Source: a virus (Duplodnaviria; Heunggongvirae; Uroviricota; Caudoviricetes). From it: DNA of 23,431 nt. Each line of letters begins with the position of its first letter. The first letter of the stretch is position 1. This document shows positions 14,761 through 23,154 of this stretch, one piece after another. The notes beneath the pieces are model-generated. The model did no database searches and was not told the origin of the DNA. It saw only the letters and a list, made by a program, of their open reading frames with translations. Location of the stretch: the IMG/VR virus record IMGVR_UViG_2671180360_000002. One strand, written 5' to 3'. The translations under genes and the position numbers were made by a program.

Positions 14761-16740
14761 TCAGGCCACCGACGAACGCACCAGCCCGCGCCAGTCAAGT
14801 GGTGCCACTCCGGCATCAATACGGATTTTTGTGGCAATGCCGTCAGTGGTGAAACCTTCCTGCTGATCAATGTATGGCGTGTCCACACCATCCAGCCAGG
14901 CCACTTCAATGGTGTCAGTGCCCTGTGCCGCCGCCAGATACCAGGTTTTCGGATCTGCCGCATCAAGACGCGCTTCTGCAATCACCTCAGCAAAGTTCTG
15001 GATGGGGTTAATGACACCGGCGTTTGCATCCGCCCCTTTCACACTGGCCGATTTGATGGTCTGGTTCGCCACCGTCTCCAGTGCCACCGGTACCAGCATA
15101 AAGGCCGGACGGATATTCAGGGCGCGATCGCCTTCTTTCTGCAGGCGCATCATCTGACGGGCCGCATCCAGTCCGGAAACGGAAATCCCACCGGTGGCAA
15201 TATTTTTGTGATCGGCATGGAACAGCGCCTTACCGTCTGACAGTTTCGGGTTATCCGTCAGCACCTTGTAAACCAGGTCACCAATCGTTGCCTTCGCCGC
15301 ACGCCCCATCTTCATCGGCACGTCCACCAGCATATTCAGATCATCATTGATAATGGCCTGGCGGGTGATGGAGAAAATCTCCCCGTAAGTGGCCAGTGCA
15401 ATGGTCTCCTTGCGATCTGAGGTGGTGATGTATTTATACTCCGCCCCCTCACGAACCTGGCGCAGAGAACCAAAACCGCCCATCCCCACGCGATACGCTG
15501 TTTTGAAGTCTGACAGGCGTCCCTTACGGGTCCACTTCTGGAAGGTTTCTTCTGATTCCTCCCAGCCCTGGATCAGCCCCTTGTTCGACACATCCAGCAG
15601 AATATTGCCAAAATCAGAGGTGCTGTGCGTCAGCGCCAGCCCGACCATCTGCATGGGGTTATAACTGGCCACCCCAATACCGCGCTCCGTCAGTGACATG
15701 CGAGCCCATTCACGCAGGGTCATCCCGTTATAGGCGTTATCCTTCTCGACATTTTCAAATCCGGCACGGGCCAGCATCGCCTGGCGGATCCCGTCCCCCA
15801 CAAAATTGCCGTTTCCGGCATAAATATGAGCCGGTGTATTTTTGTTGGTCGGCGAGGACTCCTTGCCCATTTCATTCAGCAGACGTTCACGGGCCATTTC
15901 CAGCGAACAGTCAGGATCAGCCACGCACTGTGCCTGAAGCGTCTGATAGCGACCGCCGAACATGGCAAACAGATCGTTAATGCCTGACATGCGGGCTTTC
16001 TGTTCTGCCATAACGCGGGCGCGAATGGTCGCCTCATCAGACACTGCCGGTACCGGTGATGGTTCTGTTACCGCCGGTGCAGGGATTGTCACTGTGGTAT
16101 CACGCGGGGCACTGTTGTATGGCTGCGTGATCATATTTCGGATGGATTCCGGCATCTTTTTAAATTCCTCTGTACGTTTTGACTGAATACATGCCATTGC
16201 CTTAACGGCTGGCGTCACCTGGTCTGCAAATCCGTGTGCCAGACACTCGGCACCGGACATCCAGGTCTCATCCGCCAGCATGGCGGCAATTTCATCGGTA
16301 GTTTTTCCGGTTTTCTGCGCATATACCGGCACCATAACCGACTCAAGTTTGTCCAGACGTTCGGCATAAGTGCGCATTTTCTCCGCATCACCACCGCTGA
16401 TCCCCCAGGGTTTATGGATCATCATGAAGGCATTTTCCGGCATAATGACCGTGTCACCGGCCATCGCAATCAGGGATGCCATCGAGGCGGCAACGCCATC
16501 CACATACACGGTAATGGCCGCACCGTGATTTTTCAGGGCATTAAAAATGGCGATGCCTTCAAAGACATCGCCACCCGGTGAGTTGATGTGGAGATTAATG
16601 TGGGTGATATCACCCAGGGCATTCATATCGCTGACAAACTGCTTCGCGGTAACTCCCCAGAAACCAATCTCGTCATAAATATAAATATCCGCCTCACCCT
16701 GACCACCCGCCTGCATCCTGAACCAGGATTTATTCTTCAT
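14761..16740 (-). CDS. Prohead protease (ClpP-like) / scaffold / major capsid protein fusion
   Basis: ATG at 16740-16738 gives MKNKSWFRMQAGGQGEADIYIYDEIGFWGV... The N-terminal domain carries a ClpP-type serine motif (GVAASMASLIAMAG). A central Pro/Ala/Glu-rich linker precedes a C-terminal domain of about 300 aa with capsid-like character, all in one 659-aa frame. The track ORF (to 16932) extends upstream into the portal gene, so the internal ATG is preferred. Confidence 0.85.
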   Translation of the reverse strand: MKNKSWFRMQAGGQGEADIYIYDEIGFWGVTAKQFVSDMNALGDITHINLHINSPGGDVFEGIAIFNALKNHGAAITVYVDGVAASMASLIAMAGDTVIMPENAFMMIHKPWGISGGDAEKMRTYAERLDKLESVMVPVYAQKTGKTTDEIAAMLADETWMSGAECLAHGFADQVTPAVKAMACIQSKRTEEFKKMPESIRNMITQPYNSAPRDTTVTIPAPAVTEPSPVPAVSDEATIRARVMAEQKARMSGINDLFAMFGGRYQTLQAQCVADPDCSLEMARERLLNEMGKESSPTNKNTPAHIYAGNGNFVGDGIRQAMLARAGFENVEKDNAYNGMTLREWARMSLTERGIGVASYNPMQMVGLALTHSTSDFGNILLDVSNKGLIQGWEESEETFQKWTRKGRLSDFKTAYRVGMGGFGSLRQVREGAEYKYITTSDRKETIALATYGEIFSITRQAIINDDLNMLVDVPMKMGRAAKATIGDLVYKVLTDNPKLSDGKALFHADHKNIATGGISVSGLDAARQMMRLQKEGDRALNIRPAFMLVPVALETVANQTIKSASVKGADANAGVINPIQNFAEVIAEARLDAADPKTWYLAAAQGTDTIEVAWLDGVDTPYIDQQEGFTTDGIATKIRIDAGVAPLDWRGLVRSSVA

Positions 16741-18232
16741 GCTGGCTGTCGGTGGCCTGCTGACGCTGTTGTTCAGTTCCGGCACTGTTGCCTCCTTTGT
16801 CGTTGACGGGGTCAGTATCAAAGACCAGCCCCAGTCTGCTGTTTTCATCAATTTCAGCCTTGCGGCGACGTTTGACCTCATCCGGATTGCGCCCGCCGGC
16901 ACGCACCCAGTCAGATTCTGTCGCTGCACCACCCCGGATCTGAATTCTCCAGGCTTCAGCTTCCTTAACCGGGTCGATCCACGGCATCACCGGACCGGAA
17001 TACGTCGCGTTATATAGCGTTTTCATCTCCACATCCGCCGGAATTTTCAGCAGACCTGCCGCAACCACCATATTCAGCCATGTCCGGTACACCGGACGGG
17101 TTACCGCGCCAATAAAACAGTCCTGCAGGATCAGGTAACCATCCGTGGACTCGACCAGCTCCTGCCGCTGGGCACTGTAGGTGCCGTTATAGTTACGCGC
17201 CGCACTGGAAAAACTCAGACGACTGCCCGCTGCCACTGCACGCAACTGGCCGTTGCGGAAAGTTTCAAGGTTGGGATTGGGACGGTCTGATTTGACCATG
17301 CCGATATCCTCGCCCTTGCGCAAATCGTCATAAATAATACCCGGGGTGATATGGACTTCCCGGTCGGTTTCTTTGATCCCCGGCTCTTCATAGTCCTGCC
17401 CGTCACCTTTACGGATATACAGTCCCAGCGCCGCGGCAATACGCGCCGCAGTGAGTTCCGCATCCTCATACTCCTTAAGGGCACTGATCCGCATCAGCAC
17501 CCCCGATAACATGGATGAGCCTCGCGTCTGATGCAGACGACGAGTGAACTTCAGGTGGATCATTTTTCCGGCAGCGATTTCTTTCGTATCACTCTGCCGG
17601 CCGCTGACCGGATAATTTTTATAAACCAGATATTTTTTCGGTCTTCCCCACTCATCAAGAAAAACCCCCTGATTCAGTCCGGCGGATTCATCAGTGCGCA
17701 TGGGAACAAAATCCGGCTCCATCGCCTCAAGCCAGAATGGCACTCCCGCCGTCCGTTCCAGACCGTTTCCCGCACCACTGACCATCTGCGCAAACACTTC
17801 ACCATCCCGCAGCCAGGTCCGCAGCAGTAAACGTTCAAGCACGGGACGGGTATACTGCCCTGTCACATCCGGACTCACGGACCACTCAGCCCACAACCGG
17901 CGGATATCCGCAGCCAGCTCTGCCGCCATTTCCCCGTTTTTTCGTAATGGCTGAGGCTCCACAATAATTCCCCTGGCACCAATCACCCGCTCTTCCAGCT
18001 TGTCAAACACACCAATCACCAGGTCATGATTGATATCCAGAAAACGGGCCTGCTCCCGCAGGGAAACCGCACCGTATTTACTGAGCTGATCAGCAGAGCG
18101 ATTTTCCCGCCGGGCTTTATGTGTCCGGGTCGGTTTCACCGCCTCATAGGCCATGATTAACGCCCTTGAACGCAGTCTGGCTGCTTTCCAGCCGGGGGAA
18201 AACACGCCTATCACATCATCAATAATTGCCAT
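16730..18232 (-). CDS. Portal protein
   Basis: A 500-aa ORF between W and the protease gene. Its ATG (18232-18230) overlaps the W stop (TAATG). Size and position fit a lambda-family portal; the C-terminus is acidic and Gln-rich. Confidence 0.88.
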   Translation of the reverse strand: MAIIDDVIGVFSPGWKAARLRSRALIMAYEAVKPTRTHKARRENRSADQLSKYGAVSLREQARFLDINHDLVIGVFDKLEERVIGARGIIVEPQPLRKNGEMAAELAADIRRLWAEWSVSPDVTGQYTRPVLERLLLRTWLRDGEVFAQMVSGAGNGLERTAGVPFWLEAMEPDFVPMRTDESAGLNQGVFLDEWGRPKKYLVYKNYPVSGRQSDTKEIAAGKMIHLKFTRRLHQTRGSSMLSGVLMRISALKEYEDAELTAARIAAALGLYIRKGDGQDYEEPGIKETDREVHITPGIIYDDLRKGEDIGMVKSDRPNPNLETFRNGQLRAVAAGSRLSFSSAARNYNGTYSAQRQELVESTDGYLILQDCFIGAVTRPVYRTWLNMVVAAGLLKIPADVEMKTLYNATYSGPVMPWIDPVKEAEAWRIQIRGGAATESDWVRAGGRNPDEVKRRRKAEIDENSRLGLVFDTDPVNDKGGNSAGTEQQRQQATDSQHEE

Positions 18233-18468
18233 TAAAACCTCGCCAGTTTAAATCCTGGTTTTCCCCGCCTGCGGCTCACCATCGCGGCAAGCCTGCGTTC
18301 CCACTCCTGACGTCCGGCGCGGATCTGAGAAAGGCTTTCCAGCGTCAGTTGCTGTCCGTTGAAGGTGACAGACTTCCCCTCCAGTACGGCCATTTCCGCT
18401 TCACGGTACCGCTGTATCATTTCTCTGGCTTCTTCTGTGCTCACAACCAGCCTCCTGATGTTATCCAT
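18232..18468 (-). CDS. W: Head-tail joining protein W-like
   Basis: A 78-aa ORF, MDNIRRLVVSTEEAREMIQRYREAEMAVLEGKSVTFNGQQLTLESL...RRRGKPGFKLARF, resembling lambda gpW in pattern and C-terminus as recalled. It sits between the large terminase and portal genes as in lambda. Confidence 0.8.
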   Translation of the reverse strand: MDNIRRLVVSTEEAREMIQRYREAEMAVLEGKSVTFNGQQLTLESLSQIRAGRQEWERRLAAMVSRRRGKPGFKLARF

Positions 18469-20564
18469 GGATTATCTTCCGCACGCTCCGTCCGCAGTTT
18501 TTTCTTCCGGCGACGGCGTTTTTCTGCCCCGGCCGTCAGTTCCGGGGATACCGTTTCACCAGAACGCTCCTGCGGGAAGACGAGCCACGTTTCCCGCTGT
18601 GCCCAGTCCGGTGCGGAGGGCCAGCGGATCTTTTCGTAACCATGCAGAACGGCAAGCGCATCCGCATAAACCAGCAGGTCAAACGCCTCGTTAGCTCCCC
18701 TGCCCGGTTTTCGCCATTTTCCGTCACTGCCGCGCTCTTCATAGGTCAGCTCATCGTAAAACCATCGCCCCAGCCAGTCGGGAAAGTGGATATAGTTCGG
18801 CCCTGGTGTGTCACGCCACAGGGCATTATTTACACGGTCCTTAAACGCATCCGTCTGAACCAGCCACAGCGCGACATCGCCACTGGCTCTGGCACGGCGG
18901 GCACTTCTGCCGGTATTATCCGGGAAGGTACGGTTAATCAGCCTGTCACGGCGAAGTCCATCCCCCTTGAACAGAAACACCCTGTTGCCCAGTCCGTCAC
19001 TCCGGCAACGACGCCAGAAACGATAGGCGTTATCTGTCACCCCGGCTTCCCCTCCCGTATCCACCGCCATGGCCATCAGACGCATGCGCACATCCGGATC
19101 AGAAGCCAGCGGCCATGTTTTATGGAACACATCCGTCAGCAACAAATCCCAGTCCTCCGGATATGCCGCCGGATCAACCGGCAGACTTTCACCGTTGGGA
19201 CTGCAGCGCAGTGAATGCCGGATGTTATAGCGATCAACAATCCAGCGTTCCCCCTGCTCTCCGTATCCGGTGATCTGCACAACAAAACGGCGATTTTTAC
19301 CGCCCTGTACGTCAACCGTTGCCTCAATAAAACGCACACCATCCGGCACAGATCGCCGGGGAAACGGCTCGGCACGCTGTTCAAGCAGTTCACTTTTACG
19401 CTGTTCCGTGGCTGAACGGGGCAGATAGGGGCGTCCGATATCGGTGTTCACCACCGCTTTCAGGGTCTCTTCACTGCCGGTTCGCTCATACTCTTCTTCT
19501 GCCGCCAGCAGTTTAAAAATCAGTTGTTCCCAGGTCTGAAACGCCGCAGCCGGCCCCTCCATCCAGAATGACGCAATCCGGGAATTTCGTGGCGTTCCGG
19601 TGATACTGCCGTCCGCCACCGCCCGTTCACCTTCACGAAGCCAGATCCCTTTGTTATTCAGTTCGCGTTTCTGCTCAGGGGCAATCAGCCCGCGACAATG
19701 CGGACACATCAGACGGGCAGCCTGACCGGCAGCCACAAAATCCGGGTTATTCCGGTATCCGGTCATGTTATCCATCACCGGCTGAAAATATTCCCCGCAG
19801 TGCGGACACGGCCAGTACCACCGGCGGCGGTCTCCCCGGTTATACAGTGACAGGATCCCCGTTGTTGGCGGTGCCTCATGTGCGCCGCCACAGCGCCATT
19901 TGGTGTCAGTGATATCCCGCCCCGGCGAACTCTCGACCAGGGTCATCCCCGAGGACATAAAGGTGGTGGTACGCTTTGATGCCAGGGTGAAGGCATCCCC
20001 TTCCCCGTCCACGTTTTCAGGGAAACGGTCATAATCCGTCAGCGCCACACGACGGTAATCCGAAGAAGAAAATACAGTGATCGACGGCCAGCCAATCTTC
20101 AGGAAGGAGCCGTCAAGAAACATTTTATCGTGGACGTTGTTGTCATTACGGGAAGGACTGAGGCGCTTGCTGACCTCCGGACTGTGGCGAAACGTTCTGG
20201 AAAGACGCGTTCTGGAATGCTCACGCGCCTTCGTCTCAGTCATCTGCACCACCAGCATATCCGCCGGATCACAGATGATGCCGTACACAATCCAGCCATC
20301 AATCAGCCCTTCGGTTTTCCCGGTTCGCGCAGGTCCCACAAACACCACCGCGTCATATTCACGGGCTGATAATGTATTAATGGGGTCAATCATATAGGGC
20401 GTCAACGATGACTCCCACGGACCGGAAGTATTGGCTCCCCGTGGTACCCGCATATAACGCCTGATGGCTTCCGCTACTGGTAACCGGCTGGGTGGGCGAA
20501 ACAGCGAGGCCACTTCGCGCCAGATATCGGATGCGCGGCTATGGCTCTCGTTCACCTGATTCAC
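18441..20564 (-). CDS. Terminase large subunit (GpA family)
   Basis: A 707-aa ORF. It starts at GTG 20564-20562, the first start codon after in-frame stops, overlapping the small-subunit stop (ATGTGA). A Walker-A-like motif VFVGPARTGKTE is present. Position after the small terminase gene fits. Confidence 0.9.
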   Translation of the reverse strand: MNQVNESHSRASDIWREVASLFRPPSRLPVAEAIRRYMRVPRGANTSGPWESSLTPYMIDPINTLSAREYDAVVFVGPARTGKTEGLIDGWIVYGIICDPADMLVVQMTETKAREHSRTRLSRTFRHSPEVSKRLSPSRNDNNVHDKMFLDGSFLKIGWPSITVFSSSDYRRVALTDYDRFPENVDGEGDAFTLASKRTTTFMSSGMTLVESSPGRDITDTKWRCGGAHEAPPTTGILSLYNRGDRRRWYWPCPHCGEYFQPVMDNMTGYRNNPDFVAAGQAARLMCPHCRGLIAPEQKRELNNKGIWLREGERAVADGSITGTPRNSRIASFWMEGPAAAFQTWEQLIFKLLAAEEEYERTGSEETLKAVVNTDIGRPYLPRSATEQRKSELLEQRAEPFPRRSVPDGVRFIEATVDVQGGKNRRFVVQITGYGEQGERWIVDRYNIRHSLRCSPNGESLPVDPAAYPEDWDLLLTDVFHKTWPLASDPDVRMRLMAMAVDTGGEAGVTDNAYRFWRRCRSDGLGNRVFLFKGDGLRRDRLINRTFPDNTGRSARRARASGDVALWLVQTDAFKDRVNNALWRDTPGPNYIHFPDWLGRWFYDELTYEERGSDGKWRKPGRGANEAFDLLVYADALAVLHGYEKIRWPSAPDWAQRETWLVFPQERSGETVSPELTAGAEKRRRRKKKLRTERAEDNPWITSGGWL

Positions 20565-21037
20565 ATATCGGCCTCATCACAACAGTCAATGACTGCCTTT
20601 TCCAGTGTATCGCGGATCTCATCAACCACAATCTGTACTTCATTCAGTTGTGATGCGGTCCACCCCCTGTCCCTCTCCAGCCGGTCAGGCCAGGTTTCCA
20701 GTACCTGAACTATCGCTTTCACCACGACAGAAAAGGACCGCCTGACATCACTGACTGGCACAAGCTGAACAGTTTCATGCTGAAATTTAAGACGCTCGCG
20801 CTCGGACTGATACCATGCCTTCCGATCATGTGGGTTCATCTCTTCATCTTCGGAAGCCGGTGGTTTTTCCAGCAACGAAATAATCAAATCCGTCAGGAGA
20901 TACATTTTTTTCTTTTCATTACTGCCTGGTGCAAGAGGAACATCCGCCATTCTGGCGGCAACAGTCTGCCGGTGCAGACCTGAAAGGGCTGCCAGTTGAT
21001 TAATATTTAACTTCATATTTTTCAGCTCGCCGTCCAT
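20561..21037 (-). CDS. Terminase small subunit (Nu1-like, HTH DNA-binding)
   Basis: A 158-aa ORF with ATG at 21037 preceded by GGAGGG and a 6-nt spacer. The N-terminal segment NINQLAALSGLHRQTVAARMA looks like a helix-turn-helix. It lies immediately upstream of the large terminase gene and about 200 bp downstream of the putative cosN. Confidence 0.8.
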   Translation of the reverse strand: MDGELKNMKLNINQLAALSGLHRQTVAARMADVPLAPGSNEKKKMYLLTDLIISLLEKPPASEDEEMNPHDRKAWYQSERERLKFQHETVQLVPVSDVRRSFSVVVKAIVQVLETWPDRLERDRGWTASQLNEVQIVVDEIRDTLEKAVIDCCDEADM

Positions 21038-21039
21038 TC

Positions 21040-21300
21040 ACATCCCTCCACATAAACCGCTGAACAAAAGTGGCTCTTTTTTTGTAAAGAAATGCCGCCA
21101 TATAAAGATGTCGAACAAAAATCAACCACAATCATCATCTTTTTAATGTTAAACACATTAAAAACAACAAGTTATGCTAATGATGATGATGACGATAAAA
21201 TCACAAAAATGCGCCTTTTTCCGCGCCGTCCGCCCCGTGTTCAGGCCCACCCCACCAGGAGGACCCGCAAAAATGATAATGGTTATCATTTTCAATGTAG
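21040..21300 (-). other. Putative cos region (cosN-like G-rich motif, candidate terminase-binding repeats, AT-rich segment)
   Basis: A non-coding region between Rz and the small terminase gene. The minus strand reads ACGGGGCGGACGGCGCGG (plus 21221-21238), whose first nine bases match the lambda cos junction ACGGGGCGG..., about 190-200 bp upstream of the small terminase start, as in lambda. Inverted ATCATCATC / GATGATGAT copies lie at 21131-21139 and 21182-21190. Confidence 0.45.
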
Positions 21301-21489
21301 TCCGGTTTCTTCCACCATCGCACCGGACAGGCGACTATGAGGGGACAACGCCGCGCTCCGTTAACGCGGTAAACCCCGGTGTGTATCGTTTTTGATTATC
21401 CCCGCACACTCGCGCAGAGGAGTCTCCCTGTCGGGCTGCGGTCTCTGTTAATGAGGGAATACAGCGACGATACGGCGCATCAACAAAAC

Positions 21490-21957
21490 TTATTTCAGGC
21501 ACTGAGTACGGATATATTCCTGCGCCCCTTCCAGTTGCTTGTGCATCGTCATCAGCCGCTCTCTGAGGGTGAAATAATCCCGTTCAGCGGTGTCTGCCAG
21601 TCGGGGGCCGGTTGCATTATCCACGCGGGCGGTGCCGGTGGCTTCACGCACGGGACCTGGACAGGTGGCGTTGATACGCAGGCGCTTACGACCAGCGGCA
21701 ACGTCAGCGCGAAGAGTTTCATTTTCAGCTCTCGCATCGGCTAATTCCCTCGAGTATTTTGCATCGAGCGCAGCAACATCACGCTGACGCATCTGCATGT
21801 CAGTAATTGCCGCGTTCGCCAGCTTCAGTTCTCTGACATTTTTGTCGCGCTGGGCTTTGTAGGTAATGGCGTTATCACGGTAATGATTCAGCCCCAGACT
21901 AAGCGCACCACAGGCCACCAGCATGACAATAATCACCACACACAGAACACGGTTCAT
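21490..21957 (-). CDS. Rz: Rz i-spanin
   Basis: From ATG 21957-21955: [68 protein letters not shown]..., a strong match to lambda Rz as recalled. The track ORF extends upstream from a GTG; the ATG is preferred. Confidence 0.93.
21552..21737 (-). CDS. Rz1: Rz1 o-spanin (lipoprotein, embedded in Rz in the +1 frame)
   Basis: The 61-aa translation [61 protein letters not shown] has a lipobox VSAC and a Pro-rich body, matching lambda Rz1 as recalled. It is fully embedded within Rz. Confidence 0.9.
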
Positions 21958-22056
21958 ATCACCACCAACGGATTGCCCAGACCAGAACAGCAATGGCCAC
22001 AATACGAATGGCAAATGCCATTGCCCGAATAAGTTCAGCACTCATCTTTTTAAAGT

Positions 22057-22620: not shown

Positions 22621-23154
22621 TTATCTGTCGATACCCCAGCACGCCAGCGCGCTCTCCTGGTCACGACGGGATACCTGACCGTAGCAGTTGTTTGAACGAA
22701 TACGGCAGTCTCTGCCACCGTCCTTAATCCACCAGCGAATCGCCTCACACGCTCCCCTGCGATCACCTGCATTAATTCGTTTATAAAACGTCGACGGGAA
22801 ACACTTACCGGGACCAATGTTGTACGGACAGAATGACGCGATCCCCGCTTTCTGGGGTTCGCTCAATGGCACTTTGATGTTTTTCTCCACCCATGCCAGC
22901 GCCTTATCACGCTCAATGGCGTTGACCTGGTCGCATTTTTCCTTCGACAGTTTCATACCGGGAAAAACGGGTTTTCCATCCACCATCGTGGCCCCCCGAC
23001 AGATGGTCCAGATGCCGGAACCATCGCGGTATGCCGTAGTGTGGTTACCCTCTTTTTCATCCAGAAACTGGTCGAGAATATCAGGCGCGGGCGCACCGAC
23101 GGCAATCAGTGCCAGAACGGCAGCCGACAGGCCGTATCTGATTTTTGCGTTCAT
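22621..23154 (-). CDS. R: Endolysin, T4-lysozyme-like with N-terminal signal-anchor-release (SAR) segment
   Basis: The 177-aa translation MNAKIRYGLSAAVLALIAVGAPAPDILDQFLDEKEGNHTTAYRDGSGIWTICRGATMVDG... has a weakly hydrophobic Gly/Ala-rich N-terminus (SAR-like) followed by a lysozyme-type catalytic region (E...D...T spacing). It lies upstream of Rz/Rz1. Confidence 0.88.
   Translation of the reverse strand: MNAKIRYGLSAAVLALIAVGAPAPDILDQFLDEKEGNHTTAYRDGSGIWTICRGATMVDGKPVFPGMKLSKEKCDQVNAIERDKALAWVEKNIKVPLSEPQKAGIASFCPYNIGPGKCFPSTFYKRINAGDRRGACEAIRWWIKDGGRDCRIRSNNCYGQVSRRDQESALACWGIDR

Follow-up and report, generated by a model that had tools for sequence, protein, structure and literature searches.

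Does the gap between the lysis and terminase genes of this prophage hold its packaging site, and which cohesive ends would such a site leave on the DNA? The stretch analysed here (the window; 23,431 nucleotides, IMG/VR record IMGVR_UViG_2671180360_000002) had been given an initial annotation that placed a candidate cos with non-lambda cohesive ends, together with a pair of inverted repeats, at 21040-21260. The interval is very probably the lambda-type cos of a lambdoid E. coli prophage, in which cosQ, cosN, an I2-like block, R3, I1, R2 and R1 are followed by the terminase genes. This cos differs from that of lambda in its sticky-end sequence and in its terminase-binding repeats.

Genomic setting and terminase genes

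The late genes lie on the minus strand in the order lysozyme-Rz/Rz1-(cos)-TerS-TerL-adaptor-portal-protease/capsid-tail, and every open reading frame is intact. The features that frame the site are:

22621-23154, minus strand: lysozyme, a lysis gene
21490-22041, minus strand: Rz with embedded Rz1, a lysis gene
Between Rz and the TerS gene: intergenic region of 452 bp, which contains the predicted cos
20561-21037, minus strand: small terminase (TerS), 158 aa, Pfam DUF1441 (PF07278), PHROG 141 (phrog_141, "terminase small subunit")
18441-20564, minus strand: large terminase (TerL), gpA family, with ATPase and endonuclease domains

TerL belongs to the gpA family by its domain matches (PF05876 at 2e-81 and PF20454 at 6e-84). 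It is followed by a head-tail adaptor, a lambda-family portal, a fused protease/major-head protein, a decoration protein, tail genes, J, Lom and a tail fibre. These genes make up a lambdoid prophage late region, and lambda carries its cos in the gap that here separates Rz from TerS. The fused gene is a single 723-aa reading frame (14761-16932, minus strand) that joins the head maturation protease to the major head protein (phrog_133, phrog_4523), an arrangement described for Gifsy-2-type heads in the paper on phage LLS.

The small terminase falls outside the Nu1 family (Pfam PF07471) by sequence: against Nu1, BLASTP gave no alignment and hhalign a probability of 28.5%. A Nu1 profile built from IMG/VR was uninformative, as all of its 80 matches are at least 98% identical to lambda. 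The modelled N-terminal winged-HTH domain of TerS has the gpNu1 fold, its best structural match being the DNA-binding domain of lambda gpNu1. Together, the position of the gene, the PHROG 141 assignment and the modelled Nu1-like N-terminal fold indicate that the DUF1441 family is a small terminase and that its current name is out of date. Proteins mostly labelled as unknown would thereby gain a function and a fold; public sources almost uniformly call them "DUF1441 family protein".

The nearest relatives of the window are prophages of enterohaemorrhagic E. coli (EHEC) that carry Stx genes, such as VT1-Sakai (92-97% identity). Of 5426 complete E. coli genomes, 752 (about 14%) carry the 263-bp cos region, at up to 5 copies per genome. 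No cos is annotated in the best 15 matching E. coli records listed, nor in the records of VT1-Sakai (Sp15) and other EHEC Stx prophages. The map given below thus describes, base by base, an unannotated packaging site in a module carried by about 14% of complete E. coli genomes, many Shiga-toxin prophages included, and can serve to map termini, to study transduction and to design cos plasmids.

Organization of the predicted cos

Read on the minus strand from Rz to TerS, the layout is cosQ, cosN, an A5/T5 block and then R3-I1-R2-R1 with R2 inverted. Signed positions are counted from the left nick, and a slash in a sequence marks a nick:

21260-21266, minus strand: cosQ (GGGTCCT), identical to lambda 48473-48479, the predicted packaging-termination subsite
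21222-21237, minus strand: cosN, CGGGGCGGACGGCGCG, with ACG before the left nick, which is predicted between 21236 and 21235
21205-21223, minus strand: I2-like block CGGAAAAAGGCGCATTTTT (A5/T5 tracts), between cosN and R3
21180-21196, minus strand: R3-like TerS site ATCGTCATCATCATCAT, +40 to +56, containing the second repeat of the initial annotation
21162-21174, plus strand: I1-like candidate IHF site AAACAACAAGTTA, which departs from WATCAANNNNTTR at one position and lies between R3 and R2
21131-21142, minus strand: R2-like TerS site AAAGATGATGAT, +94 to +105, inverted with respect to R3 and R1, the first repeat of the initial annotation
21101-21115, minus strand: R1-like TerS site TTCGACATCTTTATA, +121 to +135, in the orientation of R3 and forming an inverted pair with R2

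The sequences on which the original proposal rested are present in the DNA. The reverse complement of 21221-21238 is ACGGGGCGGACGGCGCGG, whose first nine bases equal the lambda junction GTTACGGGGCGGCGACCT as verified in J02459, and ATCATCATC lies at 21131-21139 on the plus strand with its complement at 21182-21190. The distance to the terminase gene, said to be like that in lambda, amounts to 199 nt from the first base of the cohesive end (21235) to the ATG (21037), and is 191 nt in lambda. The intervening DNA is AT-rich, as had been noted, with 26-33% GC at 21050-21199 versus 48-56% in the flanks. To these elements the present analysis adds a third repeat, R1 (TTCGACATC, 21107-21115), and cosQ, which lies just beyond the interval first proposed.

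The motifs differ in how far they stand out from chance. The 9-mer ACGGGGCGG alone is not significant, since its 1 match compares with 0.33 expected and at least one is found in 26 of 100 shuffles. When GGGTCCT is required to precede CGGGGCGG by 19-24 nt, the combination occurs once in the window and in 0/100 shuffles. The window holds three copies of ATCATCATC (0.25 expected), more than any shuffle. An unbiased repeat finder recovers the same pairs, with arms of 12 nt at 92% for R3/R2 and of 10 nt at 90% for R2/R1. A scan of the region with Rfam matched no family, and a terminator scan of it gave no excess and nothing relevant.

cosQ lies 31 bp to the left of the nick, and 30 bp in lambda. 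The left half of cosN and its CG flank are those of lambda (CACG/GGGCGG, 21230-21239), and the DNA across the site reads GAACACG/GGGCGGACGGCG/CGGAAAAAGG. The right nick, on the plus strand, is predicted after 21224 for an overhang of 12 nt, which is favoured, or after 21226 for one of 10 nt. The I2-like block occupies the place at which lambda has GGGTTTTCGCTATTTATGAAAATTTT (I2), a segment needed for termination according to the Feiss-laboratory literature, and by analogy it may serve termination here too.

The array of repeats has R3 forward, R2 inverted and R1 forward. This is the published order of a lambda-like cosB, R3-I1-R2-R1, in which R2 alone among the R sites has the opposite orientation (Feiss-laboratory literature). 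The two repeats seen first had been read as small-terminase binding and bending sites. As candidates for cosB-type TerS binding they stand, corresponding to R3 and R2, keeping their offsets and flanking an IHF-like site; bending more likely comes from IHF between them. An IHF site between R3 and R2 is probable, judging from the I1-like region on the minus strand, CATAACTTGTTGTTTTTAATG, set beside the lambda I1 region, CATAACTTAATGTTTTTATTT; the match to the IHF consensus does not by itself exceed chance (7 such matches found versus 12.8 expected). Between the IHF-like site and R2 there is also a perfect 10-bp palindrome, TTTTTAATGT(5 nt)ACATTAAAAA, at 21140-21164. We rejected it as a cos subsite: relatives keep only its flanking T5 and A5 tracts, and the palindrome is probably incidental.

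Set against lambda, the predicted site shares the identical 7-bp cosQ about 30 bp left of the nick, the identical ACG/GGGCGG, three R repeats with R2 inverted, an I1-like site with CATAACTT..TGTTTTTA in common, a gpA-family TerL and, in the window as modelled, the fold of the TerS DNA-binding domain. The site also differs from that of lambda. The right half of the end is ACGGCG in the window, whereas it is CGACCT in lambda, and the R repeats are unrelated in sequence (TCnnCATC type versus CGTTTCC type). TerS belongs to Pfam DUF1441 rather than Phage_Nu1, R3 is about 5-8 bp closer to the nick (R3 is placed in the literature at lambda bp 50-65 and N15 bp 48-60), and the G/C tract before CGCGG is 2 nt shorter. 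The expectation of a cohesive end unlike that of lambda is supported at the level of sequence, with GGGCGG (positions 1-6) in common and a different right half, the pattern that Feiss and colleagues describe. By sequence, the site is a lambda-like cos in the sense of that laboratory, with a conserved cosQ and left cosN half, variable positions 7-12 and a complex cosB. Gifsy-1, phi80, 21, Monarch and N15 (Feiss laboratory), compared by description, have a Nu1-type TerS, and N15 a single R site.

Conservation in related phages

We anchored an alignment on the left nick, comprising lambda and 14 DUF1441-type phages (15 in total) from Escherichia, Salmonella, Klebsiella, Citrobacter, Hafnia, Providencia and Pasteurella, in which TerS identity to that of the window spans 96% to about 37%. 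The repeat scans, but not the alignment, also included Gifsy-2 (TerS 35% identical). The offsets of the subsites from the nick are kept in phages whose TerS is only 35-58% identical. cosQ lies at -29 to -31, with the variant GGTACTCCT in Fels-1-like phages. GGGCGG at +1 to +6 is conserved, being kept in 13 of the 15 aligned phages, and the right half is variable. After cosQ and cosN, the I2-like block is the best conserved segment in phages of all seven host genera, and the block conserved there is CGCGG(A/G)AAA(A/C)GGC...TTTTT.

The repeats are similarly placed. In the window, as in Fels-1, LLS and Kp4865-4, CATCATCATCAT of R3 begins at +45; its start is shifted to +46/+47 in VT1-Sakai, Chris1 and yong2. 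The 13 relatives scanned share the order and orientation of the array and carry an inverted R2 of the GATGTCGAA or GATGATGAT type between +93 and +99. In relatives, R1 (TTCGACATC or a sequence close to it) falls at +114 to +122. As these offsets hold while the TerS ATG shifts from +130 to +204, the repeats are, on this sequence comparison, spaced from cosN rather than from the TerS gene.

Putative cos sites of phages with a DUF1441-type TerS have been noted before for mEp213 and LLS and, implicitly, for cdtI. LLS/mEp213 and cdtI resemble the window in their TerS family (48% and 37% identity), cosQ, GGGCGG and the A/T block, and LLS and mEp213 also in having CATCATCATCAT in R3 and R2/R1 of the TTCGACATC type at the same offsets. 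They differ from it in having the canonical 12 nt before CGCGG; in addition, the ATG of LLS is at +130, so that R1 overlaps the start codon, and cdtI has different R-type repeats. The ends of the mEp213/LLS putative cos (GGGCGGCGCGCT) and the start of cdtI (GGGCGGGAGCGT) are inferred or undocumented as well. VT1-Sakai (Sp15) and other EHEC Stx prophages are 92-97% identical to the window in the cos region and 96-99% in TerS; VT1-Sakai differs in a G/C tract that is 1 nt longer (GGGCGGGCGGGC).

Among 58 phage records that encode a DUF1441-type TerS, three (cdtI, LLS and yong2) had been opened inside the homologous region. The cdtI record (AB285204) ends GGCCTGCCACG, with CCACG last, and starts GGGCGGGAGCGTCGCGGAAAAAGG. 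The LLS record (PQ299149) ends CCACG and starts GGGCGGCGCGCTCGCGGG, its bases 1-12 being annotated as a 5' single-stranded cohesive site; the LLS paper inferred this end from TerL similarity and the putative mEp213 cos, with Vahanian 2017 and M. Feiss (personal communication) as its sources. For Hafnia phage yong2 the record opens with CGCGGGAAACGG and closes with GAGGGGGCAGCGACA, and so is broken at the opposite nick, 12 nt away; we found no paper on its termini. The original call of a cos site is thus upheld by a cosQ, a cosN and a cosB-like array in the order and spacing of lambda upstream of a gpA-family terminase, and by related records opened at the same junction.

Other record ends were set aside. 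Those of mEp460, mEp213 and mEp043 in RefSeq were rejected as cos markers because the records, which do not mention cos, begin at the TerS ATG by convention, as does that of Ayreon. In IMG/VR, 6 loci match exactly and about 170 are related, but none of their contigs ends at cos or holds a terminal repeat that would give the overhang length, and no record of the variant seen in the window ends there either. The cos of the Sakai prophages Sp4 and Sp14, displayed in Fig. S8 of Asadulghani 2009, was rejected as the same module, since it combines a lambda-identical cosN with a different Nu1. A literal search of the literature for the cohesive-end strings returned the LLS paper only, and GGGCGGACGGCG was found in no phage paper.

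Length of the cohesive end

Between GGGCGG and CGCGGAAAAAGG the window has 2 nt fewer than lambda, cdtI and LLS, which puts the canonical right flank out of register. CGCGG is preceded by 10 nt in the window, rather than by the 12 nt of lambda, LLS, cdtI, Fels-1 and yong2, and by 11 nt in VT1-Sakai, 9 in mEp460, 14 in Gifsy-2 and 7 in one prophage. Measured from G1 to GCGGAAAAAGG in the 69 distinct IMG/VR contexts that share the A/T block of the window, the tract has 11 nt, the form of the window, in 40, 12 nt in 27, and 8 nt and 13 nt in one each. The variation, in the right half of cosN (window 21222-21229), resembles slippage in a (GGGC)n-like run. Terminase genes that are 98.4-98.9% identical occur with tracts 1 nt apart. 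Since near-identical terminases are paired with different tract lengths, one enzyme appears to tolerate at least ±1 bp.

On the sequence, we favour a cohesive end of 12 nt, GGGCGGACGGCG. With this length, cosN (CGGGGCGGACGGCGCG) is symmetric at 10 of 16 positions, as in lambda, with CG on both flanks, versus only 6 of 14 for a 10-nt end. A symmetric TerL dimer also argues for a fixed stagger, and the Feiss-laboratory literature describes TerL as tolerant of the right-half sequence when it nicks.

The main competitor places the cos here as well but has the right nick follow CGCGG and the I2/cosB side, which would give a 10-nt end, GGGCGGACGG, in the window and one of 11 nt in VT1-Sakai-type relatives. 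In keeping with this reading, lambda, LLS, cdtI, Fels-1 and yong2 have the conserved right flank YCCGCG/ directly outside the overhang, and lambda terminase is reported to measure its cut from the R site. When the spacing of the R sites was compared from the left nick and from CGCGG, the latter tracked at least as well, with r = 0.70 for R2 and 0.55 for R1, but these correlations are inflated by close relatives. In view of the symmetry and of the tolerance of the right half, we consider this 10-nt end possible but unlikely.

A more general form of the same idea has the two nicks set independently, the left one at ACG/GGGCGG and the right one measured from cosB, so that natural overhangs would be 10 nt in the window, 11 nt in VT1-Sakai and 12 nt in the canonical phages. 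This we hold to be decidedly doubtful. If it were true, near-identical lambda-type terminases with cohesive ends of different length would offer a natural test of how the stagger is set. Our understanding of cos packaging is otherwise unchanged, and only the indel polymorphism inside cosN is of wider interest.

Packaging function of the site

The tract length bears also on whether the site, with its favoured 12-nt end, still works. It could be a cos by descent that is now nonfunctional, a fossil left by the shortened G/C tract or by defects elsewhere in the prophage. The tract is indeed shorter than the canonical one, a single relative (of the L062 type) has only 8 nt, and the literature records a defect of some function in many of the lambdoid prophages of EHEC. 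However, the tract length of the window is the commonest in its clade (the 40 of 69 distinct contexts given above), the plaque-forming phage mEp460 has one that is shorter still, and the 98-99% identical terminase genes are found with tracts 1 nt apart. Moreover, all cos subsites and the packaging and head reading frames are intact, and VT1-Sakai (Sp15), whose cos region is 92-94% identical, has been reported to be packaged into particles. Loss of function is therefore improbable.

Less plausible still is that the AT-rich repeats are an operator or promoter of the terminase operon rather than packaging sites. AT-rich, palindrome-rich DNA directly upstream of a gene would suit such a role, and the HTH domain of TerS could in principle autoregulate, but no sigma-70-like promoter match is present in 20950-21550, and the repeats keep their distance to the nick and not to the start codon, which moves 74 nt among relatives and in LLS-type phages is itself overlapped by R1. 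The terminase genes of lambda, moreover, are transcribed from an upstream late promoter. Headful (pac) packaging is excluded, because the window has a complete cos signature and a TerL whose only domain matches are to gpA.

Proposed mechanism

The analysis shows the anatomy of the sequence, its conservation and positional homology, the families of the proteins and the modelled fold of TerS; the nick positions, the overhang length, binding by TerS and IHF, and any activity of this prophage are predictions. By analogy with lambda, the winged-HTH domains of a TerS dimer would contact R3 and the inverted R2, R1 would be a third site, and IHF at I1 would bend the DNA between R3 and R2. The bound TerS may then anchor the gpA-type TerL on cosN, where TerL would cut the two strands in a staggered way, the minus strand between ACG and GGGCGG (left nick) and the plus strand about 12 bp away (right nick). 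The resulting 5' cohesive ends would most probably be GGGCGGACGGCG. Packaging would head toward the head genes and stop at the next cos, a step predicted to need cosQ, cosN and the I2-like block.

Mosaicism and flanking sequence

Many Stx1a phages match the lysis side of the window only up to 21260, where cosQ ends. One of these phages is LC645428, in which the common sequence, cosQ included, runs directly into GTTACGGGGCGGCGACCTCGAGGG, lambda-type R3, I1, R2 and R1, and a lambda-type Nu1. Because LC645428 shares the flank through cosQ and then continues as a lambda cos, the cosQ of the window occupies the cosQ position of a true lambda cos. Judged from these matches, the joint between two alternative packaging modules lies at cosQ.

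A second joint is seen in CP-1639 and 1720a-02, which share cosQ, cosN and the A/T block with the window and diverge from R3 onward (about 21165-21181), with TerS 76-77% identical. This fits the view that cosB and TerS may evolve as one specificity unit. The mosaic joints coincide with boundaries of cos subsites (21260, about 21165-21181, and 1340-1760 in LC645428).

About 8 bp upstream of cosQ there is a palindrome resembling a Fur box (plus strand, GATAATGGTTATCATTTTC, 21275-21293, -58 to -40 from the left nick) that matches GATAATGATAATCATTATC at 17 of 19 positions. No other site in the window matches as well, and non-overlapping random 72-mers reach at most 13/19. We found no paper that names both a Fur box and a cos site. 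The cos does not need the palindrome, because it is absent from LLS, mEp460 and PhiR40_1. A copy matching at 15/19 or better lies at the equal offset in 34 of 54 distinct DUF1441-type flanks, in 13 of 24 flanks of the lambda Nu1 type and in lambda itself.
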